A stretch of DNA of 55,842 bases, taken from Gemmatales bacterium. GTDB lineage: Bacteria; Planctomycetota; Planctomycetia; Gemmatales; Gemmataceae. This document shows, piece by piece, positions 34,268-55,842 of the stretch. The number at the start of each line of letters is the position of its first letter. Position 1 is the first letter of the stretch. The position numbers and the translations under genes were made by a program. The notes under the pieces are model-generated. The model did not search any database, was not told where the DNA came from, and worked only from the letters and a program-made list of their open reading frames with translations. Location: contig JBBRUN010000001.1 in NCBI GenBank assembly GCA_038247765.1, positions 1 through 55,842 of the forward strand. The letters run 5' to 3'.

Positions 34268-34399
34268 CCGGGTCAGATTTTGCCCGGTGGGGGGCAAAAT
34301 TGTGGCCGCTTCGGTGAGAAACGACCGGATGTCTCGTCTGAATTGCAGGCGAGACTCGCCAAAATGTCCAGTTCGACCCAATTCCGAGGGAGACTTCCG

Positions 34400-40855: not shown

Positions 40856-41986
40856 ATGTTCCGCTGGATGTTCCCCGCCGTTCTCGCTCTCGGCTTCGCC
40901 GCCGCCCCGGCTCCGGCCGCCGAGCCGGTGAATAAAGTCGCCGACCAAGTCAACGAGAAAATGGTCAAGATCTTCGGCTCCGGCGGCTTCAAAGGCCTCG
41001 TCAATTATTCCACGGGCATCTTGGTGTCCGAAGACGGGCACATCCTCACCGTGGCGAGCCAAGCGCTCGACACGGCGGAACTGATCGTCCACCTCTACGA
41101 CGGCCGGAAGATGAAGGCCGTCGTCGTGGTCACCGAGCCGGTGCTCGACATCGCCCTCTTGAAGATCAAAGTCGACGGCAAGAAGTTGGACGAACCGACG
41201 GGGCTGAACCTGCCGTTTTTCAACTACGCCGAGAGCTTGAAGCGGCCGCTGGCCGAGGCCGGCGACTGGGTGCTCGGGTTCAGCAACCAGTTCGAAATCG
41301 CCACGCGGAACGAACCGATGAGCGTCCAACAGGGTACGGTCTCGTCGTACTCCAAACTCCACGGTCGCCGGGGGATCTTCGATTTCCCGTACACCGGCGA
41401 AGTCTACGTCATCGACGCCATCACGAATAACCCCGGCGCCGGCGGCGGGGCGCTCGTCGATCGCAAAGGACAACTCTTGGGCATCATCGGCCGGGAGATC
41501 AAGAACACACAATCCGAGACGTGGATCAACTACGCCATCCCGCTGAGCGCCAAGGTCGAGGTGGTGGAAAAAGACAAGCCGAAGACCGTGAGCCTGCCCG
41601 AGTTCGTTTCGCTGGCCGTGCAAGGCAAATACAAACCGACCGAAAAACAAATCGTGTCGATCACGGCCGGCGGGTTCCACGGCATGCGCTTCGTGCCGAA
41701 CATTTTGGAGCGTACGCCGCCGTACGTGGATGAACTGCATCCGAATTCGCCCGCTGTCAAAGCGGGCATCCAGATCAACGACCTCGTCAGCTTCATCGAC
41801 GGCGAGCCGATCTACAGCATCAAGAGCTTCAACGATTACATGCGGAAAACCAAGCCGAAGACGACCGTGCGTTTGGAAGTGCGCCGTGGCGACAACCTCG
41901 TGACCATCGACCTGCCGCTCGAAGAATGGCCCAAAGGCTTGCTGCCGACGCTGCCGAATCCGAAGAACATCGATCCGCCGAAATAG
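40856..41986 (+). CDS. HtrA-like pseudoprotease with PDZ domain (His->Ser, Ser->Gly)
   Basis: Start at ATG 40856 (MFRWMFPAVLALGFAAAPAPAA); the track start at 40820 is a TTG. The His box reads HILTVASQA (agc 41057-41059 at the His position). Asp is retained (LDIALLKI). The Ser box reads NNPGAGGGALV (ggc 41441-41443 at the Ser position). PDZ-like ELHPNSPAVKAGIQINDLVSFIDGEPI. Confidence 0.8.
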   Translation: MFRWMFPAVLALGFAAAPAPAAEPVNKVADQVNEKMVKIFGSGGFKGLVNYSTGILVSEDGHILTVASQALDTAELIVHLYDGRKMKAVVVVTEPVLDIALLKIKVDGKKLDEPTGLNLPFFNYAESLKRPLAEAGDWVLGFSNQFEIATRNEPMSVQQGTVSSYSKLHGRRGIFDFPYTGEVYVIDAITNNPGAGGGALVDRKGQLLGIIGREIKNTQSETWINYAIPLSAKVEVVEKDKPKTVSLPEFVSLAVQGKYKPTEKQIVSITAGGFHGMRFVPNILERTPPYVDELHPNSPAVKAGIQINDLVSFIDGEPIYSIKSFNDYMRKTKPKTTVRLEVRRGDNLVTIDLPLEEWPKGLLPTLPNPKNIDPPK

Positions 41987-41987
41987 A

Positions 41988-42015
41988 GTCCTTCGTCATT
42001 TGTTCTTCGTCATTC
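41988..42015 (+). repeat. Four tandem GTCNTTN heptamers in the intergenic gap between protease paralogues 2 and 3
   Basis: gtccttc gtcattt gttcttc gtcattc, read directly. No inverted partner nearby. Confidence 0.7.
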
Positions 42016-42033
42016 GACTCAACGAGAATCGCC

Positions 42034-44070
42034 ATGCTCCGCTATAGTTTGCTCGCCCTTTTCGCGTTCGCACCGCTGGCGCATGCCCAAGATGTGAACG
42101 AAGAGAACGAGAAAGCCATGAAGGCGGCGATCGCGAAGGCGTCGCCGTGGGTCGCCAAGATCGAAACCGCCGGGGGCACCGGTGCCGTGGGCGGCGGTGG
42201 AGCACCGGGTGGCCCGGCCCCCGTCCGCAAGGGCGTCGGCCCGACCACCGGCCTCGTCGTCAGCGCCGACGGTTACGTCATTTCGAGCGCCTTCAACTTC
42301 GCCAATAAGCCGACCGACATCTTCGTGACCGTCCCCGGCAAGCCGCGGATGGTCGCCAAGATCGTCGCCAACGACACCTCGCGAATGCTCACGCTGCTGA
42401 AAATCGACGCCAAAGATCTCGCGGTGCCGACGGCGTTCCCCAAAGCCGAGATCAAGGTCGGCATGTGGACGCTGGCCCTGGGCCGGGCGCTCGATAACGA
42501 AGACGGCAAGACGCCCTCGGTCAGCCGGGGGATCGTCAGCGCACTCGACCGCATCTGGGGCAAGCTCACGCAGACGGACTGCAAAGTCTCGCCGATCAAC
42601 TACGGCGGCCCGCTCGTGGCCATCGACGGCCGCGTGATGGGCGTGCTCGTGCCGGCGTCGCCGAACGGCGAAGGGGAATCGGCCGGGGTCGAATGGTACG
42701 ACGGCGGCATCGGCTTCTCGGTGCCGCTCGATGACATCAACGCGATTCTGCCGCGCCTGAAAGAAGGTAAGGATATCCGCCGGGGGATGCTCGGGTTCAA
42801 CCCGAAGACGCCGGACGAAATGTACAATATGCCGGTCGTGGTCGGCAACGTCGCGCCGCAATCGGTCTCGGAGAAGATCGGCTTGAAAGTCAACGACAAG
42901 ATCACCTCGCTCGACGGCAAGCCGGTCGAGAACTTCAAAGATTTGATGATGCTGCTCGGGCCGAAGTACGAAGGGGACAAGATCACCCTGACGGTGGAGC
43001 GGGACGGCAAGACCGAAACTTTCAAAGACGTCGCCCTCGGCGGCACTTCGGCGACCTTCTCGCAACGGTTCCTCGGCATCCTGCCGATGCGGGACGATCC
43101 GGAACCGGGCGTCGAAGTCCGGTACGTGTATCCGAAGTCCCCGGCGGATGTCGCGGGAATCAAAGCCGGCGACCGCATCATGAAGTTCGGCCCGGCCCCG
43201 GCGCCGATGCTCACGCCGATCACCGGCGGGCGCACCCAGCTCTCGCAGATCGTCCGCAGCGCCCCGCTGAACCTCGATTTCAAAGCCGAACTGAAGCGCA
43301 AAGCCGGCGATAAAATCGAACCGGTCGTGATCAAGCTCGCCTCGTTGGGCGAGGAACTCCCGGAAAAAGCCGAGTCGAAATCGAGCAAGGGTATGGCATT
43401 CGGCAAAGAGAAAAAAGAGAACGACAAAGAGTTGGAGGTCGGGTTCAAATACGACTTGGCGAACAAGACCACCGGCCGCAAATACTGGAGATACCTACCG
43501 GATAATTACGACGTGAATAAGTCGTATGGTGTCATCGTCTGGTTGCACGATGCGGGCAAAGGGGGCAAAGAAAAAGAGGGCAAGGACGTTTTCAAGATCT
43601 GGGAAGAGTATTGCGATTCGGCCAATTTCATCTTGATCGGGCCGCAGGCTAAAAACGGCGTCGACTGGGTCGCCACCGAAGCCGAGGAACTGACGCAAAC
43701 GATTCAGCAAGCCATCGCGGGATTCACCATCGACCGTTCGCGGGTCGTCGTGCACGGCATGGGCAACGGCGGATCGATGGCGATGTATCTCGCCTTCACC
43801 GCCCGCGACCTCGTCCGCGCCGCCGTCGTCAGCGGCGCGGTTCTAAACGGCAACGCCAAGGACAACCTGCCGGCCCAGCCGCTTTCGTTCTACATCGTCG
43901 CCGGGGACAAGGATCCGTTGATCAAAGAGATCAAAGAGACCAACGAGAAGCTCAAGGCCAAGAAGTTCCCGGTCATCTTCCGCGAGCTGAAGGACTTCGG
44001 CAAAGAGTATCTGGATCAGAAGACCTTGGAAGAGATTTGCAGCTGGCTCGATGCGTTGGATCGGATTTAA
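42034..44070 (+). CDS. HtrA-like pseudoprotease (all three triad positions substituted) + 2 PDZ-like regions + C-terminal alpha/beta-hydrolase-like domain
   Basis: Start at ATG 42034 (MLRYSLLALFAFAPLAHA). His box YVISSAFNF (Phe), Asp box SRMLTLLKI (Met), Ser box SPINYGGPLV (tac 42601-42603). PDZ-like IGLKVNDKITSLDGKPV and VAGIKAGDRIMKFG. The C-terminal YGVIVWLHD...VVVHGMGNGGSMAMYLAF is esterase-like. Confidence 0.8.
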   Translation: MLRYSLLALFAFAPLAHAQDVNEENEKAMKAAIAKASPWVAKIETAGGTGAVGGGGAPGGPAPVRKGVGPTTGLVVSADGYVISSAFNFANKPTDIFVTVPGKPRMVAKIVANDTSRMLTLLKIDAKDLAVPTAFPKAEIKVGMWTLALGRALDNEDGKTPSVSRGIVSALDRIWGKLTQTDCKVSPINYGGPLVAIDGRVMGVLVPASPNGEGESAGVEWYDGGIGFSVPLDDINAILPRLKEGKDIRRGMLGFNPKTPDEMYNMPVVVGNVAPQSVSEKIGLKVNDKITSLDGKPVENFKDLMMLLGPKYEGDKITLTVERDGKTETFKDVALGGTSATFSQRFLGILPMRDDPEPGVEVRYVYPKSPADVAGIKAGDRIMKFGPAPAPMLTPITGGRTQLSQIVRSAPLNLDFKAELKRKAGDKIEPVVIKLASLGEELPEKAESKSSKGMAFGKEKKENDKELEVGFKYDLANKTTGRKYWRYLPDNYDVNKSYGVIVWLHDAGKGGKEKEGKDVFKIWEEYCDSANFILIGPQAKNGVDWVATEAEELTQTIQQAIAGFTIDRSRVVVHGMGNGGSMAMYLAFTARDLVRAAVVSGAVLNGNAKDNLPAQPLSFYIVAGDKDPLIKEIKETNEKLKAKKFPVIFRELKDFGKEYLDQKTLEEICSWLDALDRI

Positions 44071-44155: not shown

Positions 44156-44791
44156 TCACCTCAACTCGACACTCCAGTACGCCGAATCCAAGAACGACTG
44201 CCAGGTGTGGTACTTCTTCTGGCTCAACTTCATGTTGAGCATCGGGCTGCGCTTCGGTTTCTCCGGCTTGCGAATCAGCGTCAGGTTCGCTTGGCGCGGC
44301 GTGCGGCCCCCCTTGCGGACGTTGCACTCGACGCAGGCGCAGACGATGTTTTCCCACGTCGTACCGCCGCCTTGGCTGCGCGGTACGACGTGGTCCAGGC
44401 TCAGTTCGCTCATGATGAACTTCCGGCCGCAGTATTGGCACTGGTTGTTATCGCGGGCGAAGATGTTCCGCCGGTTGAACTTCACGGCTTGGCGGGGCAC
44501 TTTGTCGTAGTCGAGTAACCGGATGACGCGGGGAGCTTGGATTTCGACGGTGGGCGTGCGCACCCAGTCGTCGTTTTCGTCGCGGAAGTGCTGGGCGCGG
44601 AACGCGCTCAGTTCGGCCCACGATTCGAAATCGTAGCTGAGGTACTGCCCCTCCTCGACGCTCACGACCTCGGCTTGCTGTTTGGCCAGCAGGCAGAAAG
44701 CCCGGCGCACGCTGATGACGTGCACGGCCATGAACATCTTGTTCAGCACCAGCACGCTCGATTCGAGCGGGGAATAAGACTTCGGATTCAT
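44156..44791 (-). CDS. HNH endonuclease
   Basis: C-terminal CQYCGRKF...LSLDHVVPRSQGGGTTWENIVCACVECNVRKGGR is a canonical HNH/zinc-finger nuclease motif. ATG at 44791. Confidence 0.85.
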   Translation of the reverse strand: MNPKSYSPLESSVLVLNKMFMAVHVISVRRAFCLLAKQQAEVVSVEEGQYLSYDFESWAELSAFRAQHFRDENDDWVRTPTVEIQAPRVIRLLDYDKVPRQAVKFNRRNIFARDNNQCQYCGRKFIMSELSLDHVVPRSQGGGTTWENIVCACVECNVRKGGRTPRQANLTLIRKPEKPKRSPMLNMKLSQKKYHTWQSFLDSAYWSVELR

Positions 44792-45079: not shown

Positions 45080-45181
45080 TGGCGACAAGTTTCCAACTTG
45101 TCGAAGGGCGACTTTCCAGCGACTTCCGTGGAACCGACCGACATCGAGTTTTCTTGGCGACAAGTTTCCAACTTGTCGAAG
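45080..45181. repeat. Two identical 27-nt palindrome-containing repeats (REP-like element pair)
   Basis: tggcgacaagtttccaacttgtcgaag occurs at 45080-45106 and 45155-45181. Each contains the hairpin cgacaagtt-tcc-aacttgtcg. The spacer is 48 nt. Confidence 0.85.
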
Positions 45182-45320
45182 AGCCAAAAGTAAAAGGCAA
45201 AGTCTGCGCTTTCCGACATTTGTCCGCGTGCGAACGGATGGTAAACTTCCCACCGTGAGTTCGAAACCCACTGAGCCGGTGCCCATTTCCAAACCCTCTT
45301 CCCCCATCGGGAGCACGACC

Positions 45321-45554
45321 ATGGCGGCCACGAAAAAGCGGTATTTTGAATCGACCGAAGACGGCGCGAGCAAGTTCTGGGAAGTCTGGATGGAAACCAA
45401 CACCGTCACGACACGCTGGGGCAAAATCGGTTCCGACGGCCAGACGAAAACGAAGGAGTTCGCCGACGAGGCTAAGGCGAAGAAGGAGTACGAGAAGCTG
45501 CTGAAAGAGAAAACCGACAAGGGCTACGTCGAAGGCACCGCTCCGGCGGAGTAA
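45321..45554 (+). CDS. Stand-alone WGR-domain protein (77 aa)
   Basis: MAATKKRYFESTEDGASKFWEVWMETNTVTTRWGKIGSDGQTKTKEFADEAKAKKEYEKLLKEKTDKGY is a WGR pattern (FWEV ... WGKIG ... K.GY). Start at ATG 45321 within track ORF 45228..45554, with a GGGAG-like RBS upstream. Confidence 0.8.
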   Translation: MAATKKRYFESTEDGASKFWEVWMETNTVTTRWGKIGSDGQTKTKEFADEAKAKKEYEKLLKEKTDKGYVEGTAPAE

Positions 45555-45586
45555 GTACGCGTTCCCCCTCCAACCTCGGGTGCATC

Positions 45587-46009
45587 ATGCTCACCGTTTC
45601 CGCGAAGGCCATCGGCCGCAAGAAACCGATTGTCGACGACTTCTCTATCCCGGTACCGGACGCGCTCGCCGACAGATCCTTCCAACTGCGCGATGTCATC
45701 GAGCACGTCGTCCGGGCAGAAGTCACTGCGTTTCGCGGTCGCCAAGCGGAGCGCCGATTGCTCCGGGCGCTCACCGCCAAGCAGATCGACGAAGGCTTGG
45801 CGACGGGCAAGGTCTCGGCCGGCGGCAGCGATCTCGATCAAGCCGTCGATGTTGATCAAGCCGTGGCGACGGCGCTGGAAGCTTTCGCCGATGGCCTGTT
45901 CCTCATTGTGGTCGACGAGGTCGAACTGCAAGATTTGAACGCGGTCGTACCGCTGGCCGAGTCGAGCCGGCTGACTTTCATCCGTCTCACCATGCTCGCC
46001 GGAGGCTGA
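45587..46009 (+). CDS. Hypothetical 140-aa protein, middle gene of the WGR/DUF4132 operon
   Basis: Open frame with ATG start 32 nt after the WGR stop. Its stop (46007-46009) lies 3 nt before the GTG start of the giant gene. No motif recognised. Confidence 0.55.
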   Translation: MLTVSAKAIGRKKPIVDDFSIPVPDALADRSFQLRDVIEHVVRAEVTAFRGRQAERRLLRALTAKQIDEGLATGKVSAGGSDLDQAVDVDQAVATALEAFADGLFLIVVDEVELQDLNAVVPLAESSRLTFIRLTMLAGG

Positions 46010-46012
46010 CCC

Positions 46013-49000
46013 GTGTTGAAGCCCGACCTCGCCCGCGAACAACTCGCCGTGTTGAAATCGAAGAAGCACAAGCAGGCGCGGATCACGCGTTTGCAAAAGC
46101 TGCCGAAGGCGCTCGCGGCGACCGGACTCGGGCTATTCGGCCTGCTTCCGACCGGCTTGCAACCCAAGGAATGGACCGACCGTCACAAGCTCCAAGCATC
46201 GTCCGCCGTCCAACTGAGATCCGATGCAAAGGGCCGCGCGAAGATCATCGCGGCCCTCTTCCCGACGATCGCGGCGGATGTCGAAGCCGGCTGGCAACTC
46301 CTCGGCCGGTTGCCGTACACGTCGGGCTACAACCGCCGTGGGTTCCGGGCGCCGAATCGACCCGAGATCTACGCCTCGTCCCGCCAACGATACTTAAATC
46401 AACTTTTCGACGAACTCGCCGAAGTCCCGGACGATGTCCTCTCGGCCGAGTGGATCGCGGCTTGGGCCGTGCACCTCGGTTACCGGACCGATGAATTCGG
46501 CTACCTGCTCGCTGGCGTCATCGACGCCGGTGGCCAAACGGCCGATACCGTGTTGACGATCCTCCAAGATTCCGCGGCGAACCGTCACGAAATCGGCGGG
46601 CCTGGCCGGCATGCGACGCGCGGCCTCCTCTGCTGCTCGCAGCCGGCCGCGTGGGACTTCTGCGAGAAACTTTTGATCGCTGCGCAGCGTCAAGAAGGCC
46701 TGCGGCAGACGATTCTCGAAGCCGTGGACGAGGCTCACCCCGAGGCCTTCCAGCGGATGGTCAGTTTGGTTCTCGATCAGAACCTGATCCGCTTCGCGTC
46801 GGTGGCCCGCGCCGCCGGGGTCTGGTTCGGAGAACAGGAAGAAGTCGAGAACCCCAAGAAGTTGAAGGCCGATTTGGAAGCCTGCCGCGATCTCCTCGGC
46901 GACCCGGCCGCGCGCAAGAAGGCCGTGGAAAAAGGGGACGCCGTGACCGCCTACCGCGGATTGTGGGCCATGGCCTTCGAAGATATCGAAGTCGCGATCC
47001 AGGCGGCGACGCCGCTGCTGAAGGACAAAGATGCGGCCCGGCGCTTCGCGGCTGTGAAGCTGATCGGCGAGAGTGGCCTGCCGGAAGCGACGAAACTCGA
47101 ACTGCCGCTGCTCGACGATGCCGATCTGCGCGTCGTGAGTTCGGTACTCGGCTCGCTCCGTAATCAAGATGACGATGCAGACGATCACACTCCGAAAGAT
47201 CTCTTCGAACGACTCGAGAAATTGATTCCGAAACTCCCGGAAAAACGCAAGGAACTGAAGCCGCTCGTGCCGGCTTGGCCCGTGCGGGATCTCGGCCAAG
47301 AAGACGCCGCCGATCGACTCCTCGGCTCCCTCGGACAGCGTCCGGCCGAGCGATTGCTGCCGTATTTGCCGATGATGAGCCAGTATCAGCGCGTTCACGC
47401 ACTCGCCAAAGTCTGCGAGCCGCGGACGCTCTCGACGAAAGTCCGGCAGACGCTGCTCGCCATCGCCGGTGAACCGAATCGCTACGTGCGCGAGTCGGCG
47501 CTGAAGCACTTGAAGAAATCGAAACTCGCCGAGGACGAAGTCCAAACGCTGGAAGGTTACCTGACACGCAAGGTCGCCGACTTCCGCCGTAGCATTTTCG
47601 AACTGCTGTTGAACCGCACCGACAAACTCGTCGTCGGCACCATCGACCGCTTGCTCGGCGCCGGCGATGGCAATCAGCGCGCCGCCGGGATCGAACTTTC
47701 GCGGCGGATGGTCGACGACGAACGCATGGCCGAGCCGATCCGCGAGCGCCTGCGCGATTACCGCGAAGCGAAAGGCAAGCGGCTCTCCTCGACCGAAGCC
47801 GAGGCGATTGAGATCGTGCTGAACCCGGCGAGCCGGCCGCCGACGCTCGAAGACGGCCTTGGGCTGTACGATCCCGCCGACCGCAGTTCCGTCGTCGAAC
47901 CGGAGAAGAAGAAGGTCAAGTTCGTCACGCCTGCGGCAGTCGCGTTCCTCAAGGAACTCGACGAGTTCATCCACGAGCACCGGGCCACAACGTTTGTGAA
48001 CATCCGCCACGGGCAGAACTCGGAAAACGTCCTCGGCTCGATCACCTACAGTTGGTACTTCCCCGGCCCCGACAACAAACTGACCGCCGAAGAAGATCGG
48101 CCCTTTCTGCCGCTGCTCGATTTGTGGGAAGGCTGGTGGAAGGATCGCCCCGCCAAGACGCGCGACGCTGACGGCTTCGAATTGCTCCGGGCCATCGCGG
48201 TGCCGAAGGTCGCCATCCGTGAGGGCGATTCGGACGACTTCATTGACGAAGATGACGATGATCGGAAGGCGAAACCGAACCCGGCCCAAGCATCCTTCCG
48301 CAAGGTCTGCGGACAGATTCTCTCGGACAAACCGGTCGGCCTGCGCTACGAGGGTTTGATTTCGCAACTGCTGAGTTGGTTCATCAAGCTCTACCCGGCG
48401 AAGGGCGCGACCGCATTCGTGCTCGATGCCGCCGAGACAGCCTTGGCCTACGCGCCGCAGGACGTGCTCGACCAGACGCCGCTCGCAGATCCTCCGGAAG
48501 TCGAGGATGACGATGACGACGAAAACAAAAGCTTCGAATGGCGGGACCACCAAGCCTTCTTGATCTGGCTCGCCTTCGCCGACCAAGCGCGGCGGGCACC
48601 GGACTGGATGCCGGCCCACGATGTCCGACTTTTCCAGCTCTACCGCTGGCGCGACGAACCGATCCCCGGCGTCACGCGGCACCGCCCGGAGTTGGACGTC
48701 GTGCTGGCCGGGTACGCCGCCGGCGCCGCGACGCTCGCCGATTTCCAAGACCACCTCATCGGCCCGCGCAGCAAACAGCGCTGGGGCCGCGATGGTTTCC
48801 AGTCGCTAGGCACGTTGTCGCACGGCCCGCGCAGAGAATATCCGCTCGTCGAGGAACGCCCGGAACTGCGCGCCGCCGTCGATGCGATCGTGGCGCGCGT
48901 CATCGAGATCGAACTCGTCCGCGGCGAAACCCCGACGGCCGCGACGAACCCGGCCAACGACATCGGCCGGATCAGCGGCCGCGAAATCCTGTTCCGCTTG

Positions 49001-51070
49001 ATCGCGGCGCTCGGTAAACAAGGCTTCGGCAAATCGGCCCGCTACGGCGAAAGCGAAAACAAACCGGCCGTACTCTCCGGCTTGATCAAGAAGTGCGTGC
49101 CTCTGCCGGAAGACACCCCGGAGGCCTTCGCCGCCGATGCGAAAGCGGCCGTGGCAGCCGGGCAATTCGAAATCGACCGAATCGTCGAGCTCGGCTTGGT
49201 CAACCCGCGTTGGGTCGCGCACGCCGCCGCCGCGATCAAATGGCCCGGCTACGCCGAGGCCGTCTACTGGTTCATGGCCCACACCGAGAACAACTGGGGC
49301 AACGCCCTCAACACCGAAGTCGAAACCGACGACGATGACGACGATGCTCCGAAGGCCAAGCCGGAGTCGGTCTGGCAGACCATCGTGAAAGCCCGCACGA
49401 ACCTCTCGGCCGAGCAACGGGCCGACGGGTTGATCGACGTAGTTTGGTTCCATAAGGCCTATGCCGAGGTCGGCAGCGCCAAGCGCTGGGACGCCATCGA
49501 AGACGCGGCCAAGTTCCTCGGCTACGGCCAGGGGCACAAGAAGGCGGCCCGCCTCGCCGATGTGCTGCTCGGCAAAACCAAGAAGAAGGATCTGGTCGGC
49601 GACATCCGCAAGAAGTTCCTCAAAGAGGCGGTGCGGCACCTCGGGCTGTTGCCGTTGCCCGAAGACGCCGCGAAGAAAGAAGTCGAACTCGCCGACCGGT
49701 ATAAGGTGCTGAAGGAGTACGAACGCTACGCCCGCGGGCTCAGTTCGCTGTCGAAAGAACCGGCGCTGCAAGCGGCCCGCCTCGGCATGGAGAACCTCGC
49801 CGTGACCGCCGGGTACGCCGACCCCGTGCGATTGGAGTGGGCCGTGACCGCCCGCGAAGTCGCCGACTTGGCCAAGGGCCCGGTCGCCGTCGCGGTCAAG
49901 AACGTCGCTGTGATTCTCACACTCAACGCCGACGCCGAGACGGAGATCGTTTACACCAAAGACGGCAAACCGCTGAAGTCGTTGCCCGCCGACGCGAAGA
50001 AACTCGACAAAATCGCCGAGGTTCTGGAACGGAAGAAAAACCTCACGCGATTGGCGTCGAGCACGAAGCGCTCGCTCGAACAAGCGATGTGCTCCGGCGA
50101 CCTCTTCCGCGCGGCGGAACTGAAAACGCTGATGGAGCACGCCCTCGTGCGGCCGCTGCTCGAACGGCTCGTGCTGAAGACACCGGCCGGTTTGGGCTAT
50201 CCTGCCAAGGGCGGCGCGGCGTTGAAAAACTGGGACGGGAAATCGATCACGGTGAAAGCTGCGGACGAATGGTCGATCGCGCACCCGCTCGATCTCCTCG
50301 CCGCCGGCGACTGGCACGACTGGCAAGCCGAGTGCTTCCGCACCGAACGCCGGCAGCCGTTCAAACAGATCTTCCGCGAAATCTACGTTCTCACGCCGGC
50401 GGAGAAGGAGGACATCGACAAATCCCGCCGCTATTCCGGGCACCAGGTAAATGAGCAGCAGTCGAAGGCGCTCTTCGCGGGTCGCGGTTGGTCCACGAGG
50501 GAGGATATCAGCAAGCTCTATCGGTCGGCGAATCTCGTCGTCAGTGTCGATTTCGACCACGGCTATTCGACCCCGGCCGATGCTGCGGCGCCGGCCATTC
50601 GCGAGGCCGTGTTCCACCGCCGGGGCGACTGGAAGAAGCTGCCGCTGGCCGACGTGCCGAAGTTGATCTTCAGCGAAGTGATGCGCGATCTAGATCTCGT
50701 GGTGAGCGTCGCCCACGTCGGCGGGGTCGATCCCGAAGCGTCGCAATCGACCGTGGCGATGCGCGCCGACCTCGTCCGCGAAACCTGCCGGCTGTTGCAG
50801 TTGGCGAACGTCTCGCTCGACAGCAAACATGCCCTCATCAAAGGGGAGTACGGCCAGTACTCGGTGCACCTCGGCAGCGGGGTCGTGCACAAGCAACCGG
50901 GCGGGTCGCTGTGCGTCGTGCCGGTGAACGCCCAGCACCGCGGCCGGTTGTTCCTCCCGTTCGCCGACGACGACCCGCGCACGGCCGAGATGGTGTCGAA
51001 GGTGCTGCTGCTGGCGCGGGATCACGAGATCCAAGATCCGACGATCTTGTCGCAGATCGTGGCGAAGTGA
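46013..51070 (+). CDS. Giant (1685 aa) helical-repeat protein with C-terminal DUF4132/MolR-like region
   Basis: GTG start at 46013. The C-terminal third contains RSLEQAMCSGDLFRAAELKTLMEHALVRPLLERLVL, RRQPFKQIFREIYVLTPAE, FAGRGWSTRE, FSEVMRDLDLVVSVAHVGGVDPEASQST, YSVHLGSGVVHKQPGG. I recognise these as the DUF4132 family (E. coli YehI/MolR type) from memory. Three poly-Asp patches (DEDDDDRK, EDDDDDENK, ETDDDDDDAPK). Confidence 0.8.
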   Translation: MLKPDLAREQLAVLKSKKHKQARITRLQKLPKALAATGLGLFGLLPTGLQPKEWTDRHKLQASSAVQLRSDAKGRAKIIAALFPTIAADVEAGWQLLGRLPYTSGYNRRGFRAPNRPEIYASSRQRYLNQLFDELAEVPDDVLSAEWIAAWAVHLGYRTDEFGYLLAGVIDAGGQTADTVLTILQDSAANRHEIGGPGRHATRGLLCCSQPAAWDFCEKLLIAAQRQEGLRQTILEAVDEAHPEAFQRMVSLVLDQNLIRFASVARAAGVWFGEQEEVENPKKLKADLEACRDLLGDPAARKKAVEKGDAVTAYRGLWAMAFEDIEVAIQAATPLLKDKDAARRFAAVKLIGESGLPEATKLELPLLDDADLRVVSSVLGSLRNQDDDADDHTPKDLFERLEKLIPKLPEKRKELKPLVPAWPVRDLGQEDAADRLLGSLGQRPAERLLPYLPMMSQYQRVHALAKVCEPRTLSTKVRQTLLAIAGEPNRYVRESALKHLKKSKLAEDEVQTLEGYLTRKVADFRRSIFELLLNRTDKLVVGTIDRLLGAGDGNQRAAGIELSRRMVDDERMAEPIRERLRDYREAKGKRLSSTEAEAIEIVLNPASRPPTLEDGLGLYDPADRSSVVEPEKKKVKFVTPAAVAFLKELDEFIHEHRATTFVNIRHGQNSENVLGSITYSWYFPGPDNKLTAEEDRPFLPLLDLWEGWWKDRPAKTRDADGFELLRAIAVPKVAIREGDSDDFIDEDDDDRKAKPNPAQASFRKVCGQILSDKPVGLRYEGLISQLLSWFIKLYPAKGATAFVLDAAETALAYAPQDVLDQTPLADPPEVEDDDDDENKSFEWRDHQAFLIWLAFADQARRAPDWMPAHDVRLFQLYRWRDEPIPGVTRHRPELDVVLAGYAAGAATLADFQDHLIGPRSKQRWGRDGFQSLGTLSHGPRREYPLVEERPELRAAVDAIVARVIEIELVRGETPTAATNPANDIGRISGREILFRLIAALGKQGFGKSARYGESENKPAVLSGLIKKCVPLPEDTPEAFAADAKAAVAAGQFEIDRIVELGLVNPRWVAHAAAAIKWPGYAEAVYWFMAHTENNWGNALNTEVETDDDDDDAPKAKPESVWQTIVKARTNLSAEQRADGLIDVVWFHKAYAEVGSAKRWDAIEDAAKFLGYGQGHKKAARLADVLLGKTKKKDLVGDIRKKFLKEAVRHLGLLPLPEDAAKKEVELADRYKVLKEYERYARGLSSLSKEPALQAARLGMENLAVTAGYADPVRLEWAVTAREVADLAKGPVAVAVKNVAVILTLNADAETEIVYTKDGKPLKSLPADAKKLDKIAEVLERKKNLTRLASSTKRSLEQAMCSGDLFRAAELKTLMEHALVRPLLERLVLKTPAGLGYPAKGGAALKNWDGKSITVKAADEWSIAHPLDLLAAGDWHDWQAECFRTERRQPFKQIFREIYVLTPAEKEDIDKSRRYSGHQVNEQQSKALFAGRGWSTREDISKLYRSANLVVSVDFDHGYSTPADAAAPAIREAVFHRRGDWKKLPLADVPKLIFSEVMRDLDLVVSVAHVGGVDPEASQSTVAMRADLVRETCRLLQLANVSLDSKHALIKGEYGQYSVHLGSGVVHKQPGGSLCVVPVNAQHRGRLFLPFADDDPRTAEMVSKVLLLARDHEIQDPTILSQIVAK

Positions 51071-51141: not shown

Positions 51142-54100
51142 TCACTTCGTCAGCTTGAGTTCTTCCTTGCTGGTGATGGCGAAGTAGAACCCGTGTGGAT
51201 TATCCCCGTTGCTTACCTTCAGCAGGATCGTGTTCATCCCCTTCTTGAGTTTCACTTTCACGTTGTCCTGCTCCGGCGCTGCGGCCACCGCCTTATCGTG
51301 GCCGAAAACTTTCTCGCCGTTGACGAACAATCGGCAGCCGTCGTCGGTGCCGAGGAGGATCGTCGCTTCTTGGTCGACGGGGCTTTCGATGGTGCGCGTC
51401 ATCACGCTAACCGAGTTCGCACCCTTGGCCCCGTGGAACGCGGCCAAGTCGACGTAGCCAGTTTGCGATGTCTTCACGGTTGCCCACGGCAGTTTTTCGA
51501 GTGAACCGAAATCGTCTTCCAGCTTCTTCGCCACTGGCCCCAGGATTTGCCAGTTATCCGGCGTCAGCGACGGCGTCTGCAACTTGCTGAGGTACTCGAC
51601 CACATCGACGAGTTCGTCTTCGGTCAGCGTCGCCACGAGAGCTTCGGGCATGATGCTCGTGAGCTGCTTCTTGCGCTCGGTGCCCTTCACCGGGAATTGG
51701 TAATCCTTGCCGTTGGCGTCGCGGATCGTCAATGTCGTTTCGGTCTCGCCGACGAGCAAGCCCGTGATGCTCTGGCCGTCTTCGCCATCGAGTTTCCAAC
51801 TCAGGTATTGATCCGCGATGGCTTTGCTCGGTTGGAACATCGATTCGTACAGGTTCTCTTTGGTCGCTTTCTTGCCGACCATGCTGAGGTCGGGGCCGAT
51901 GCTGCCGCCTTGGCCACGGACCATGTGACACTTCATGCACTGCACTTCGGACGTCAGCGACTTGGCCATCACGGCTTTGCCGTTGTCGGCGTTGCCGACG
52001 CGCTTGGCGAGTTCGGTTATTGCTGGGAGCTTCTTGGGGTCGAGCTTGCCGGGGGCAGGGAAGGCGAGCGCGGCCTTATTACGAAGATCCTGGAAAGGAG
52101 TGTTGCGAAGCAGCCGGCCGACGAGCGGCGCCATTGACTCGGGCAGGCCGCCCCGCTCCTTGATCGCCAGCAGCCATTGCGTGCCCACCCGCGAGCCGGC
52201 CAATCCTTCGATGGCGGTGTTGCGCGTTTCCGCGTCGGCGTCCTTTGCCAGCACCACGCCCGAGAGCAGGTCCACCGCGTCCTTCTGCACCTGCCCCTGG
52301 CTCTTGCCCGCGAGCGCGGCGACGGCCCGGTAGACTTCGCCCTTCGATTCCTTCGCGCCGTCGGCGTCTAGGAGTTTGCGCAGGGCCGCGAAGGATTCCG
52401 CGCTCGGCAGTTGGCCCAGCGTGCGGATCGCGTCCCGGCGGAGGTCGGCGGACTTGGAGTTGCCCGCGAGCGCGGCGATGGCCGCGGTGCGGTCGGTCGC
52501 ATTCGCGGCGGCAACCAACTGCAAGCCCACGGGGGCGAGTTTGTCGTCGGCCAGCAATTTGTCGAGAGCGGCCCCGAGTTCCGTGCCTTTCTTGAGGGCC
52601 GACCACTTCGTCGGCAGGAACAACTTCAAGCTTTCGAAAGCACGGGCTTTCGCTTCAGGGCTGGCGTCGGACGCCAACATCGTCAGCATCGTTTTCCCGG
52701 CGGAAATGTCGTCGCTGGAGGCGATGATGTCGACGATGCGGGCCTTCTGCATCGCGGTGATCTTCGGATCGGCCAGCAGCTTTTCCATCTTCGGCAGCAT
52801 CGACTTCGGCCGGAGTTCCCAGACGAGATCGGCGACCTTGTCGTTCCATTCGGGAAAGTGTTTCTCGAAGTCGGCGAGGATTTTGTCCCGGCGTTCGGGA
52901 TCGGTCCCGCAGGCGATATTCAGCGCGGCGCGGTAGAAGATGTCTTTGCCGTCGTAGAGCTTGGCGAGCGTGTAGAAAAGGGGAATTAGTCGTTCGGCAG
53001 AAGCATCTCGACTCATAAGTAGCATTTCGCTCCAAATCTCCGGGCCGGTTTGTACGATTGAAGCGAACCACTTTTCTTGTTGGGGTCTCGGATCGGCAGG
53101 TGTGACTCCAATAACATATTGTCCCCGCAGTACGGCACATTTGAGTTCGATGGTCCCGGCCTGGCGCTTGCCGAATTCAATCATCGAAGTGGCGATCCGT
53201 TCGCCTTCCTCTTTGGTCAGTTCCTCTACGGGTTTTTTACCATTGCTGATCCGGCTCATGTGCACAAAAGCCCAGGTAGCACGTGCAGCATCCTGTATGA
53301 ATGGCGCGTTCAAACCATCAGCTAATGCGAGAACGCCCGCTTTAGTCGGCGTTGCGTAGCTATACAATGCCAGCGAACGAGTCGTCAAGTTTGGGCTTGT
53401 CAGGGCCGCCAGTACCCCTTCTTTCGTATCCAGCTTCACCTCCGGCACCTTATACCCCTTGTGCCCCTTCGGAGTCAGCCGGTAGATGCGCCCGTCATTC
53501 GGGTCGCCCATACCGTGGCCGCCGACGCCGCGGTCGTACCAGTCGGCCACGAAGACGCTGCCATCCGGGGCCGTGCACACATCGCTCGGCCGGAAAAAAT
53601 TGTCGCCGCTGGTCAGGATCACTTCCTTGTCGAGTTCGTAGCCCGCGCCCTTGGGCTTGCGCGTGAACGCCCGCACTTCCTTGGGGCCGGCGTCGCAATG
53701 CAGCAGCGTGCCGGTGTATTTTTTGCCGAGCAGACTGCCTTCGTAAAACTGAATGCCCGTCGGGCTGCCGAAGCCGGTGCGGAGCGTCTTGTGGACGATG
53801 CCGGGCTGCTCCTCGTGCCAGTGGCTTTGGCCGGCGCCGCGCGGGAAGTAGCCGTAGTTGCCGCCGGGCATGACGTGGCAGATGCGGGTCTGTTGGTTGC
53901 CGTCGTCGTCGTTGTCGGAGAGCCAGATTTCGCCGAAGCTATCGACGCACGCTTCGTAGTTGTTGCGGAAGTTGTGGGCGATCAGTTCGAGCTTCGTGCC
54001 GTCGAGGTCGCAACGCCAGACGGTCCCACCCTGGCAGTCGGTGCGGTTCGAGTCGAACTTCCGGCCTTTGCCGTCCGACGCTTGCAGCCCCTTCACCCCT

Positions 54101-54660
54101 TGGTCGCCGACGGTGAAGTAGAGTTTGCCGTCAGGCCCGAGGTGCAAGCCGTGGACGCCGTGATCGTGGTCGAACCCGCCGAAACCGGTGAGGAACTTTT
54201 TCGGCGGCCCATCGGCCACCGGGTTGGTCGCGTCTTTGCAGGCGAACTCCAGAATATCCGGCGATTGGGCCACCAGCACGCGGTACCCTTTGCCCACGGG
54301 GATGACGCAGACGCTCAGCGGCCCGTAGAGTTCCTTGCCTTGGTAGAAGGTCACGGCCTTGGTCGCCTTCCCTTCGCCCTTCTCGTCGATGAGCACTTGG
54401 ATGCGGTCGCCTTCTTTGCGGAGGATCGGCCGGTTGAAATTCTTCCTGCGGTAGTTGACCGCTTCGGAGACCCAAACCCGGCCTTTGTCGTCCACGTCGA
54501 TCGAGGTCGGATTGATGACCATCGGCTCCGCGGCGAAGAGTTCGACTTGCAACCCCTCCGCCGGCTTCATCGCGGCCAAGCCCTTCTCGGGTGAGAGCTG
54601 GGCGGAGGCGGACAAAGCGAAAAGGGGCAAGAGTGCGAGGGAGAGGAACCGGCGGATCAT
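51142..54660 (-). CDS. PVC-type heme-binding CxxCH protein (membrane-bound-dehydrogenase-like beta-propeller + HEAT repeats + cytochrome c motif + C-terminal beta-sandwich)
   Basis: Start at ATG 54660 (MIRRFLSLALLPLFALSASA). N-terminal GLQVELFAAEPMVINPTSIDVDDKGRVWVSE is typical of the planctomycetal/verrucomicrobial dehydrogenase-like domain. CxxCH in EVQCMKCHMVRGQGGSIGPDLS. HEAT-like repeats lie between them. Confidence 0.85.
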   Translation of the reverse strand: MIRRFLSLALLPLFALSASAQLSPEKGLAAMKPAEGLQVELFAAEPMVINPTSIDVDDKGRVWVSEAVNYRRKNFNRPILRKEGDRIQVLIDEKGEGKATKAVTFYQGKELYGPLSVCVIPVGKGYRVLVAQSPDILEFACKDATNPVADGPPKKFLTGFGGFDHDHGVHGLHLGPDGKLYFTVGDQGVKGLQASDGKGRKFDSNRTDCQGGTVWRCDLDGTKLELIAHNFRNNYEACVDSFGEIWLSDNDDDGNQQTRICHVMPGGNYGYFPRGAGQSHWHEEQPGIVHKTLRTGFGSPTGIQFYEGSLLGKKYTGTLLHCDAGPKEVRAFTRKPKGAGYELDKEVILTSGDNFFRPSDVCTAPDGSVFVADWYDRGVGGHGMGDPNDGRIYRLTPKGHKGYKVPEVKLDTKEGVLAALTSPNLTTRSLALYSYATPTKAGVLALADGLNAPFIQDAARATWAFVHMSRISNGKKPVEELTKEEGERIATSMIEFGKRQAGTIELKCAVLRGQYVIGVTPADPRPQQEKWFASIVQTGPEIWSEMLLMSRDASAERLIPLFYTLAKLYDGKDIFYRAALNIACGTDPERRDKILADFEKHFPEWNDKVADLVWELRPKSMLPKMEKLLADPKITAMQKARIVDIIASSDDISAGKTMLTMLASDASPEAKARAFESLKLFLPTKWSALKKGTELGAALDKLLADDKLAPVGLQLVAAANATDRTAAIAALAGNSKSADLRRDAIRTLGQLPSAESFAALRKLLDADGAKESKGEVYRAVAALAGKSQGQVQKDAVDLLSGVVLAKDADAETRNTAIEGLAGSRVGTQWLLAIKERGGLPESMAPLVGRLLRNTPFQDLRNKAALAFPAPGKLDPKKLPAITELAKRVGNADNGKAVMAKSLTSEVQCMKCHMVRGQGGSIGPDLSMVGKKATKENLYESMFQPSKAIADQYLSWKLDGEDGQSITGLLVGETETTLTIRDANGKDYQFPVKGTERKKQLTSIMPEALVATLTEDELVDVVEYLSKLQTPSLTPDNWQILGPVAKKLEDDFGSLEKLPWATVKTSQTGYVDLAAFHGAKGANSVSVMTRTIESPVDQEATILLGTDDGCRLFVNGEKVFGHDKAVAAAPEQDNVKVKLKKGMNTILLKVSNGDNPHGFYFAITSKEELKLTK

Positions 54661-54730
54661 TGGGGAAAGCTCCGAAGGCGGGGAGGATCTCAGGGAATGA
54701 TAGCGTAACCGAAAGCAGATTGGGACAGCA

Positions 54731-54841
54731 GAAGATTTCACCGCAGAGAAACAAGGGACGCGGAGACCGAACCGATCGGGTTTTCATGCTGAAAAATCTT
54801 GTTGACTCCGCGTTCTCTTCTTTCTCTGCGGTGAAATCTTC
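54731..54841. repeat. Long inverted repeat spanning the divergent promoter region
   Basis: gaagatttcaccgcagagaaa (54731-54751) is the exact reverse complement of tttctctgcggtgaaatcttc (54821-54841). An inner 8-bp pair, acgcggag / ctccgcgt, extends it. Confidence 0.85.
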
Positions 54842-55734: not shown

Positions 55735-55842
55735 GTCGTTCGTCATGCGTCATTCGTCATTCGGGCTGCCGCAAGTCGGATATGCCCATGAGGCCGTGCG
55801 TCAGCACGAATGACGAATGACGAATGACGAATGACGAATGAC
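55735..55842. repeat. Heptamer-periodic inverted repeat (GTCATTC)n ... (GAATGAC)5, truncated by the window end
   Basis: Left arm: gtcgttc gtcatgc gtcattc gtcattc (55735-55762). Right arm: gaatgac x5 (55808-55842). It starts immediately after the stop at 55734, and the loop is about 45 nt. Confidence 0.85.

Follow-up and report, generated by a model that had tools for sequence, protein, structure and literature searches.

A conserved pair of genes for a small Gly-Gly-tailed protein and a DUF5724-DUF4132-DUF7737 protein, with a candidate role in the DNA damage response and a putative ligase-WGR remnant beside it in a Gemmatales bacterium

DUF4132, or ‘MolR’, proteins are widespread yet uncharacterised, and a literature check, itself incomplete, found no function assigned to DUF4132 in the full-text publications that mention it. 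The Escherichia coli molR gene owes its name to a phenotype in molybdate utilisation (Lee et al., 1990, cited in PMC8533742), and it has also been described as a member of the LexA regulon (PMC8533742). More is known about the drA0165-drA0166 operon of Deinococcus radiodurans, in which DRA0165 is a DdrO target with a radiation/desiccation response motif (RDRM) operator at -83: the operon is strongly up-regulated upon DdrO depletion, V5-tagged DRA0166 protein rises after mitomycin C treatment in the wild type, whereas an irrE mutant shows no such rise, a WGR protein encoded elsewhere in the same regulon (DR2173) behaves like DRA0166, and the expression of moeA and moeB does not change alongside the operon (PMC8533742). 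Here, a related locus is analysed in a stretch of 55,842 nucleotides (hereafter the window) at the start of contig JBBRUN010000001.1 from a Gemmatales bacterium (Planctomycetota; assembly GCA_038247765.1), where three co-directional open reading frames (ORFs) encode a WGR-domain protein, a protein of 140 aa and a very large protein (hereafter the giant). The 140-aa gene and the giant form a conserved pair, and it is somewhat more likely than not (roughly 0.55) that they encode a DNA-damage-response complex linked to DNA breaks through WGR domains.

Each of the three ORFs is a real gene and not a chance reading frame, because all have significant hidden Markov model (HMM) E values or numerous homologues, and ratios of non-synonymous to synonymous substitution (dN/dS, against contig L161) that are low throughout: 0.096 (WGR ORF), 0.117 (140-aa gene) and 0.142 (giant). 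A previous reading of the letters alone, made by a model and called here the sequence-only reading, described the giant as DUF4132-like, which is correct (PF13569, aa 1318-1493, E 2.8e-43, 148 bits) but incomplete, since DUF5724 (PF18991, aa 73-1277, E 1.8e-165, 553 bits) and DUF7737 (PF24879, aa 1582-1682, E 9e-37, 126 bits) are also there. These three matches exceed the gathering score and occur in the same order in DRA0166 and in the Bacteroides finegoldii protein; HEAT_2 matches were found too, and the giant had no match in NCBIfam, PADLOC or PHROGs.

A scan of species-representative genomes led to 111 genomes, from which 80 loci were kept and compared with the window proteins; almost all are from Planctomycetota, together with one Anaerolineae metagenome-assembled genome (MAG) and two MAGs labelled Alcaligenaceae. 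The giant lies directly 3' of the 140-aa gene in 77 of the 80 loci, and the other three stop at or just beyond the 140-aa gene. The pair is also annotated in D. radiodurans, B. finegoldii and Fulvitalea, and a homologue of the small partner lies near a DUF4132 match in Novosphingobium (hmmsearch E 1e-11). Among shorter DUF4132-DUF7737 proteins (800-930 aa), the one case with a partner is in Fulvitalea, and those of Acetobacter and Chondrinema have none. Given the pairing in 77 of 80 loci, this wider occurrence and the lack of a partner for E. coli YehI, which has DUF4132 only, the conserved unit is the small protein plus a DUF7737-bearing DUF4132 protein, and not a three-gene operon. Clustering the ORFs that flank the pair across the 80 loci brought out no further conserved neighbour: the families that recur are all abundant planctomycete paralogues, and the genes around the pair are ordinary, variable planctomycete genes. 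Some genomes contain two copies of the module (for example, L020 and L027 from one MAG), and Fulvitalea has a long pair placed back to back with a short one on a replicon of 554 kb (L164 1775-8224).

The way in which the two genes are joined also points to a functional unit. Co-translation of all three ORFs had been proposed from their gaps of 32 and 3 nt and the GTG at 46013, features that are indeed present, and the proposal holds for the 140-aa gene and the giant. The 140-aa gene closes with the codons GCC GGA GGC TGA, which places a GGAGG sequence 7 nt before the giant GTG, and this use of the Gly codons, along with the 3-nt gap, is kept in most loci; homologues of the giant begin at the same aligned codon, often ATG. 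The two genes thus appear to be tightly, translationally coupled. In coupled loci (those with the giant starting within a few nt), the penultimate Gly codon is GGA or GGG rather than GGC or GGT in a ratio of 46:1, compared with 8:11 in uncoupled loci, where the genes are 50-250 nt apart (Fisher p = 7e-7). In the uncoupled loci this codon is mostly GGC or GGT, and the protein still ends in Gly-Gly. The possibility that Gly-Gly is kept merely as a Shine-Dalgarno sequence for the giant was therefore rejected; its retention with non-Shine-Dalgarno codons where the genes are uncoupled argues for selection at the level of the protein.

This terminus is a defining feature of the partner family. The 140-aa protein has 237 close homologues, and an exhaustive profile search recovered, at E < 0.001, 1,572 clusters built at 50% identity; nearly all of the best 150 listed are ~135-150 aa long and are matched to the very last residue. 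G139 and G140 are invariant among the close homologues, the window protein ends ...LTMLAGG, and 195 of 270 family members end in LAGG, most others having L[VTI]GG or LAGA. The terminus can also be Gly-Ala, as in MAGs that carry the label Phycisphaerae or Paludisphaera, or a single Gly, and in rare cases it is extended by 1-3 residues: a few metagenomic members end GGYF, GGLV, GGIF or AGGC, and two Bacteroidota members (L163 2650-3069 and L164 2536-3009) end LSG-RLW and LAG-STY, three residues past the conserved Gly, tails that resemble those of ubiquitin-like precursors needing trimming. The sequence-only reading recognised no motif in the 140-aa protein, and in one respect it was right: the protein has no match in Pfam, NCBIfam, PADLOC or PHROGs, a Pfam scan of 109 family members gave none and revealed no informative fusions among the longer ones, and a search of the family alignment against Protein Data Bank (PDB) sequences returned nothing. 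What it missed are the C-terminal Gly-Gly and a predicted ubiquitin-like fold. In an AlphaFold2 (AF2) model with a mean predicted local distance difference test (pLDDT) score of 78.9, the elements follow the order b-b-a-a-b-b-b before a low-confidence tail, with strands at 2-8 and 16-21, a 39-residue helix, a loop and a second helix, and strands at 105-109, 112-114 and 128-133. This is the order of a beta-grasp fold with a helical hairpin insert of ~65 residues, and the top 50 PDB matches found with Foldseek, though not significant, are mostly ubiquitin, SUMO, NEDD8, ThiS, MoaD, SAMP1 and Urm1. The model thus makes it likely that the partner is a ubiquitin-like beta-grasp protein.

Small Gly-Gly-tailed beta-grasp proteins encoded with a larger partner are familiar from MoaD-MoaE, ThiS-ThiG/ThiF, ubiquitin and the operons for bacterial ubiquitin-like proteins. 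Like these, the 140-aa protein is predicted to combine a beta-grasp fold with a flexible Gly-Gly end, and its gene is directly upstream of, and coupled to, that of its presumed partner. Unlike them, it has the ~65-residue helical insert and no detectable sequence relation to their small proteins, and the presumed partner is a solenoid of ~1,700 aa.

Within the giant, conservation across 59 homologues is greatest at aa 201-250 and over the final 135 residues, where identity to the window protein is ~75%. The C-terminal 408 residues keep at least 50% identity across several phyla and include ~70 invariant positions, among which His, Asp, Glu, Ser and Arg are frequent. AF2 models this region (aa 1278-1685) as a mixed alpha/beta structure with a pLDDT of 83.5, in which two invariant loops (aa ~1570-1578 and ~1638-1653) have very low confidence. 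Foldseek searches of the C-terminal 408 residues against PDB and BFVD gave no significant match, the best being YwmB (0.034) and the Knl1 RWD domain (0.045), taken at most as a faint lead, and neither the giant nor its C-terminal alignment matched anything among PDB sequences. Cys1441, the sole near-invariant Cys of the DUF4132 region, was considered as an E2-like catalytic residue and rejected, since DRA0166 has Val and YehI has Phe at this position. The giant is basic in its first 72 residues and in its DUF4132 domain and acidic in its solenoid; the 140-aa partner is also acidic. The three poly-Asp patches pointed out by the sequence-only reading exist, in the least conserved stretch of the giant, and the proteins from Deinococcus, Phycisphaerae and Anaerolineae lack them, so they appear to be lineage-specific loops and not core features.

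Comparison with D. radiodurans connects the pair to an experimentally studied response. There, a 134-aa protein ending in LAGG and a 1,626-aa DUF5724-DUF4132-DUF7737 protein are encoded with a 3-nt gap directly downstream of trxC, and by position and composition this pair was identified as the drA0165-drA0166 operon (PMC8533742). DRA0165 matches the 140-aa family profile with an hhalign probability of 99.9% (E 1e-37), and its RDRM palindrome was located at -82 in this analysis. The Deinococcus and window pairs share gene order, the 3-nt gap, the LAGG tail and the domain architecture; in contrast to the window, D. radiodurans has no WGR ORF upstream of the pair and no poly-Asp runs in DRA0166, and its RDRM operator has no equivalent upstream of the window pair or, in RDRM-like form, in the planctomycete loci. 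Downstream of DRA0166 lie a molybdate ABC transporter (modA plus permease, at 0.9-2.5 kb; L086 10097-11714) and a thiS-thiazole synthase cluster (at ~5 kb; L086 14542-14736), a proximity that is notable given the MolR name and the MoaD/ThiS-like tail and that is probably coincidental.

The second connection to DNA damage comes from WGR domains. When up to 10 kb of flanking DNA was inspected on each side of the pair, a WGR was found in only five of the 80 loci (L014, L015, L041, L047 and L067), and in each of the five it is either part of the giant or encoded no more than 2 kb from the pair. Because the hits cluster so closely in so wide a search space, the association of WGR with the pair appears to be real, if optional. 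It takes three forms. In L014 (15426-16910), L041 (17007-15682, minus strand) and L067 (15907-17208), the WGR is the C-terminus of an ATP-dependent DNA ligase of ~440 aa (DNA_ligase_A_M, OB_2, WGR) whose gene adjoins the pair, starting in L014 ~25 nt past the giant stop codon; these proteins also have an N-terminal Cys/His motif (CxC...CxH) that by eye looks SWIM-like, and we know of no characterised bacterial ligase with this design. In L047, and in P0343, P0348, P0352 and P0380, the giant itself carries a fused WGR at its C-terminus, with 60-62% identity between the window WGR and these fused domains. In L015, a WGR heads a divergent WGR-DUF4132 protein of MolR type next to the pair. More distant relatives of the window WGR (63-83% identity) are found in other contexts, beside ligase fragments, Uma2 or helix-turn-helix/methylase genes. 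DNA ligase is a break-sealing enzyme, and it is to a ligase that the WGR is attached in these relatives of the window locus. The giant-WGR fusions and the closeness of all five WGRs to the pair support a functional link between WGR and the giant at the level of gene organisation.

In the window itself, the WGR ORF has the expected domain: the single WGR that had been recognised by eye was recovered by an HMM search against PF05406 (73.9 bits, threshold 22; E 1.1e-20; match over 73 of the 79 positions of the profile). This is the Pfam family to which the DNA-break-sensing WGR domains of PARP1 and PARP2 belong (PMC6294510); compared with those enzymes, the window protein lacks an ADP-ribosyltransferase domain, and DNA binding by its 77 aa is putative. 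The sequence-only reading regarded it as a sensor subunit split off from the giant, and here the comparison leads elsewhere. A tblastn search of the window with the L041 ligase-WGR protein aligned 116 aa at 45207-45533 (45% identity, E 2e-22), and the alignment continues in frame upstream of the WGR ATG, through a Pro/Ser/Thr linker, into RFPTFVRVRTDG, to which the end of the ligase OB domain of the L041 protein, RFPSFVRVRSDA, aligns; Pfam DNA_ligase_OB_2 ends there at aa 331. Thus the C-termini of the planctomycete ligase-WGR proteins of L014, L041 and L067 align with the window WGR, the linker and 12 OB residues. Further upstream, the reading frame passes through two hairpin elements that resemble repetitive extragenic palindromic (REP) sequences and then reaches a stop. 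No other ligase homology was found in the window, where the nucleotidyltransferase domain, and with it the KxDG signature of a ligase, and nearly all of the OB domain are absent. Because the OB, linker and WGR segments align in frame and ligase homology is otherwise missing from the window, the WGR ORF is best described as the retained 3' remnant of an ATP-dependent DNA ligase-WGR gene.

The remnant is not decaying: dN/dS is 0.35 for the OB relic plus linker and 0.096 for the WGR (both against L161), and the WGR is still under purifying selection. Its position upstream of the pair is narrowly distributed: the order WGR, 140-aa gene and giant occurs only in contigs L084, L161, L098 and L155, in which the WGR and the 140-aa protein share 90% identity or more with those of the window, and relatives with a 140-aa protein 87% identical (L081 and L083) have no WGR upstream. 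The tidy three-gene ‘operon’ in this genome therefore looks like a recent accident, the truncation of a ligase-WGR gene beside REP-like repeats.

Comparison with E. coli shows which features belong to the wider DUF4132 group. In the K-12 annotation, yehF is a WGR-only coding sequence, followed by the yehH (molR) pseudogene and by yehI, which encodes a DUF4132 protein, so that WGR and DUF4132 are encoded together and WGR is a coding sequence of its own, as in the window. A LexA-box-like sequence, CTGGATAAAATTACAG (CTGG-N8-ACAG), was found at L085 2449-2464, 9 nt before the yehF start. YehI shares the core DUF4132 motifs AHP.DL and PF.Q..R with the giant and differs from it in lacking DUF5724 and DUF7737. 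The E. coli locus continues into MoxR, DUF5682, vWA and SWIM genes (yehLMPQ), which are absent from the window locus; YehK was considered as a counterpart of the 140-aa protein and rejected, being unrelated to the 140-aa family. The defining arrangement of MolR/YehI-type proteins, an N-terminal WGR and a DUF4132 in one polypeptide with no DUF7737, is seen in the L015 protein and not in the window.

Taken together, these observations favour the reading in which the pair acts as a DNA-damage-response complex. The coupling of the genes suggests that the small partner and the giant would be made in fixed proportion and would form a complex, and their co-occurrence, in a handful of cases that are informative on this point, makes the DUF7737-bearing C-terminal module the probable docking site for the small subunit. 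Expression of the pair, which others have shown to rise after DNA damage in Deinococcus, may do so in the window organism as well. The fusions and neighbourhoods described above suggest that WGR, as a break-binding domain, would bring the complex to DNA breaks, being supplied in cis by the giant in some genomes and elsewhere perhaps in trans, from a ligase-WGR or MolR-like protein encoded next to the pair; in the window genome it would come from the stand-alone 77-aa product of the truncated ligase-WGR gene directly upstream of the pair.

It is important to set against this reading a number of observations that weaken it. A WGR that is near the pair in just five of 80 loci cannot be obligatory. 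Damage induction is known only from D. radiodurans, which belongs to another phylum than the window organism, and no shared palindromic operator was found upstream of the pair in the planctomycete loci. The beta-grasp assignment of the partner comes from a single AF2 model with weak structural matches (best Foldseek E 0.27, none significant; template-modelling scores of 0.4-0.5, normalised to small targets, with high root-mean-square deviations), hhalign comparisons of the 140-aa family with ubiquitin, ThiS and MoaD gave probabilities below 1%, and some Bacteroidota partners, those with the LSG-RLW and LAG-STY ends, have no free Gly-Gly terminus. In addition, neither structure nor sequence reveals a significant relative of the giant's C-terminal module, so that ‘scaffold’ is a default description and not a finding.

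The remaining features of the region, whose positions are collected in Table 1, appear to be incidental to the pair. As the sequence-only reading stated, an HNH endonuclease gene faces the three ORFs across a REP-rich spacer, which measures 529 nt. A 30-nt element built on a perfect palindrome (9+9), CGACAAGTT-TCC-AACTTGTCG, occurs in it twice, where no copy would be expected by chance. Exact stems of the form (GTGG)CGACAAGTT-NNN-AACTTGTCG were found in 70 metagenome contigs (L087-L156) with ~60% GC on average, at up to three copies per contig, often in pairs 46-75 nt apart and commonly flanked by GTGG, with loops that vary among GAA, GGA, TCC and TTC. These hairpins thus appear to be a dispersed REP-like family and to be bystanders here, even if they mark the point of ligase-WGR truncation. 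Nearly the whole of the HNH protein is covered by a match to phrog_16726 (E 9e-35), its HNH region resembles those of IscB and Cas9d (NCBIfam, below the cut-off), and its PADLOC matches are generic HNH ones. This HNH gene lies beside the module in none of the 80 loci and accompanies it only in the same-species contigs L084, L098 and L155; because its adjacency is limited in this way, it is judged to be an unrelated neighbour and not a member of the module. The neighbourhood survey called for by the sequence-only reading therefore bears out a conserved 140-aa gene and giant, and neither the stand-alone WGR order nor the HNH gene is conserved with them.

Flanking the region are genes for a 714-aa trypsin-PDZ-PDZ-esterase fusion (41926-44070, plus strand) and a 1,199-aa DUF7133/HEAT/cytochrome c protein (51142-54741, minus strand), which in our judgement are typical Planctomycetota genes and show no link to the module in the other loci. 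Farther away, a 699-aa protein (34280-36379, plus strand) contains a long low-complexity region rich in Lys, Glu, Gly, Pro and Ala, of which (GQP)n is a part, with a repeat at 35483-35547; this region accounts for an AT skew of 0.58 at 35001-36000. A perfect 7-nt tandem repeat (ACGAATG x 5.3) at 55806-55842 runs off the end of the window.

Table 1. Positions of the genes, sequence elements and predicted remnants of the locus in the window.
Feature	Position	Strand	Remarks
HNH endonuclease gene	44156-44791	-	211 aa; PF01844, E 2.7e-15; divergent, 529-nt spacer
REP-like hairpin element, copy 1	45080-45109		palindrome CGACAAGTT-TCC-AACTTGTCG at 45083-45103
REP-like hairpin element, copy 2	45155-45184		ends ~20 nt before the putative ligase remnant starts
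Putative ligase OB-domain relic RFPTFVRVRTDG	45207-45242	+	in frame; 12 residues; tblastn with the L041 ligase-WGR protein
Putative Pro/Ser/Thr/Lys-rich linker relic of the ligase-WGR gene	45243-45320	+	GGGAG at 45309-45313, 7 nt before the WGR ATG
WGR ORF	45321-45554	+	77 aa counted from the ATG; Pfam WGR PF05406
140-aa ORF	45587-46009	+	begins 32 nt past the WGR stop
GGAGG Shine-Dalgarno sequence for the giant	46001-46005	+	formed by the Gly-Gly codons that close the 140-aa gene; 7 nt upstream of GTG 46013
Giant ORF	46013-51070	+	1685 aa; GTG start 3 nt past TGA 46007-46009
Giant subregions		+	basic N-terminus aa 1-72; DUF5724 alpha-solenoid 46229-49843; DUF4132 49964-50491; DUF7737 50756-51058
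Acidic run DEDDDD of the giant	48245-48262	+	aa 745-750; similar runs at 48503-48523 (aa 831-837) and 49328-49345 (aa 1106-1111)

Other explanations of the pair have to be weighed against the damage-response complex. One of them takes the tail of the partner at face value and proposes covalent chemistry, in which activation of the terminal Gly would lead to its attachment to targets at damaged DNA, or to a thiocarboxylate for sulfur transfer. The DUF4132-DUF7737 module would then serve as a non-canonical activating or ligating enzyme, or a housekeeping E1 of the MoeB/ThiF type, encoded elsewhere in the genome, would carry out the activation. A near-invariant, flexible Gly-Gly that is selected in the protein, structural matches to ubiquitin-like proteins and the minority of members with 1-3 residues past the conserved Gly (GGYF, GGLV, AGGC, LSG-RLW and LAG-STY), as in precursors of ubiquitin-like proteins, are all consistent with it. 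Nor do the Gly-Ala and single-Gly termini in the family speak against it, for E1-type enzymes can tolerate such ends, as the substrates of Cap2 from cyclic-oligonucleotide-based anti-phage signalling systems (CBASS) illustrate. The invariant His, Asp, Glu, Ser and Arg residues of the C-terminal module and its two low-confidence invariant loops could form a site for a ligand or partner, and its weak Foldseek matches include RWD domains such as that of Knl1, whose fold is E2-like. However, the RWD-like matches are not significant (E 0.045-0.12), the one candidate catalytic Cys is replaced in DRA0166 and YehI, and the 140-aa family has no sequence similarity to ThiS, MoaD or ubiquitin. Moreover, no gene for an E1-like adenylating enzyme, an E2, a JAB protein or other ubiquitin-like machinery is conserved near the pair in the 80 loci, and Pfam detects no such domain in the giant. 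Covalent chemistry is therefore considered unlikely, and a bolder version, in which the 140-aa family would be a new bacterial ubiquitin-like modifier whose Gly is ligated after damage by a DUF4132-DUF7737 module of no E1 or E2 ancestry and targeted to breaks by WGR, more doubtful still.

Just as doubtful is the proposal that the WGR, the 140-aa protein and the giant form a dedicated three-subunit sensor that, together with the HNH nuclease encoded opposite, would make up an anti-phage or conflict system. It would account for three co-directional ORFs with short gaps, between which no terminator-like site was found, and for purifying selection on the WGR ORF, which matches the PADLOC model WGR_XIII weakly (E 9e-6); from the naming scheme, we take this model to derive from type XIII retrons. 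The resemblance of the HNH domain to those of PtuB, Cas9 and IscB points in the same direction. Yet the three-gene order is confined to contigs of at least 90% identity and is missing from relatives at 87%, the HNH gene is never conserved beside the module, the neighbours are ordinary and variable planctomycete genes, and the preservation of at least 50% identity across phyla in the C-terminal region is regarded as atypical of fast-evolving defence genes. With no PADLOC or PHROGs match for the 140-aa protein or the giant, only a weak one for the WGR and no conserved neighbour of defence type, an anti-phage role is unsupported. The least probable explanation, to which very little weight is given, is a MolR-type regulator of molybdate or molybdenum-cofactor metabolism with the Gly-Gly protein as a MoaD-like carrier. 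It could draw on the phenotype for which E. coli molR was named, the similarity of the partner tail to that of MoaD and ThiS and the presence of modA ~1.8 kb downstream of DRA0166, but the 80 loci show no conserved molybdenum gene around the pair, the 140-aa family has no profile similarity to MoaD, YehI-type proteins of E. coli have neither DUF7737 nor a partner, and moeA and moeB of Deinococcus are unchanged when the operon responds (PMC8533742). The sequence-only reading had preferred nucleic-acid sensing or defence over molybdate regulation, and the first part of that preference survives in a modified form, since a DNA-damage role fits the DdrO- and IrrE-dependent response in Deinococcus better (PMC8533742).

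The locus in the window can thus be seen as a lineage-specific variant of a recorded and uncharacterised operon type (DRA0165-DRA0166, related to MolR), the variation being a leftover WGR ORF. Within the partial literature check, what appears to be new for the family is an obligatory small partner, its predicted ubiquitin-like fold with a Gly-Gly end selected in the protein, and a recurrent link to ligase-WGR proteins. The DUF7737-bearing branch of the DUF4132 proteins nearly always comes with a partner family that is absent from the four family libraries searched and from the publications found to mention DUF4132. If the ubiquitin-like modifier version were true, the pair would amount to a damage-signalling tag system, analogous to the eukaryotic ubiquitylation of PCNA and histones and built from unrelated parts. 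Whichever mechanism applies, the pair is now tied to an experimental handle, the DdrO/IrrE-dependent induction of its counterpart in Deinococcus, as well as to WGR and DNA ligase, and in this way an anonymous operon of DUF genes becomes testable in a tractable organism.

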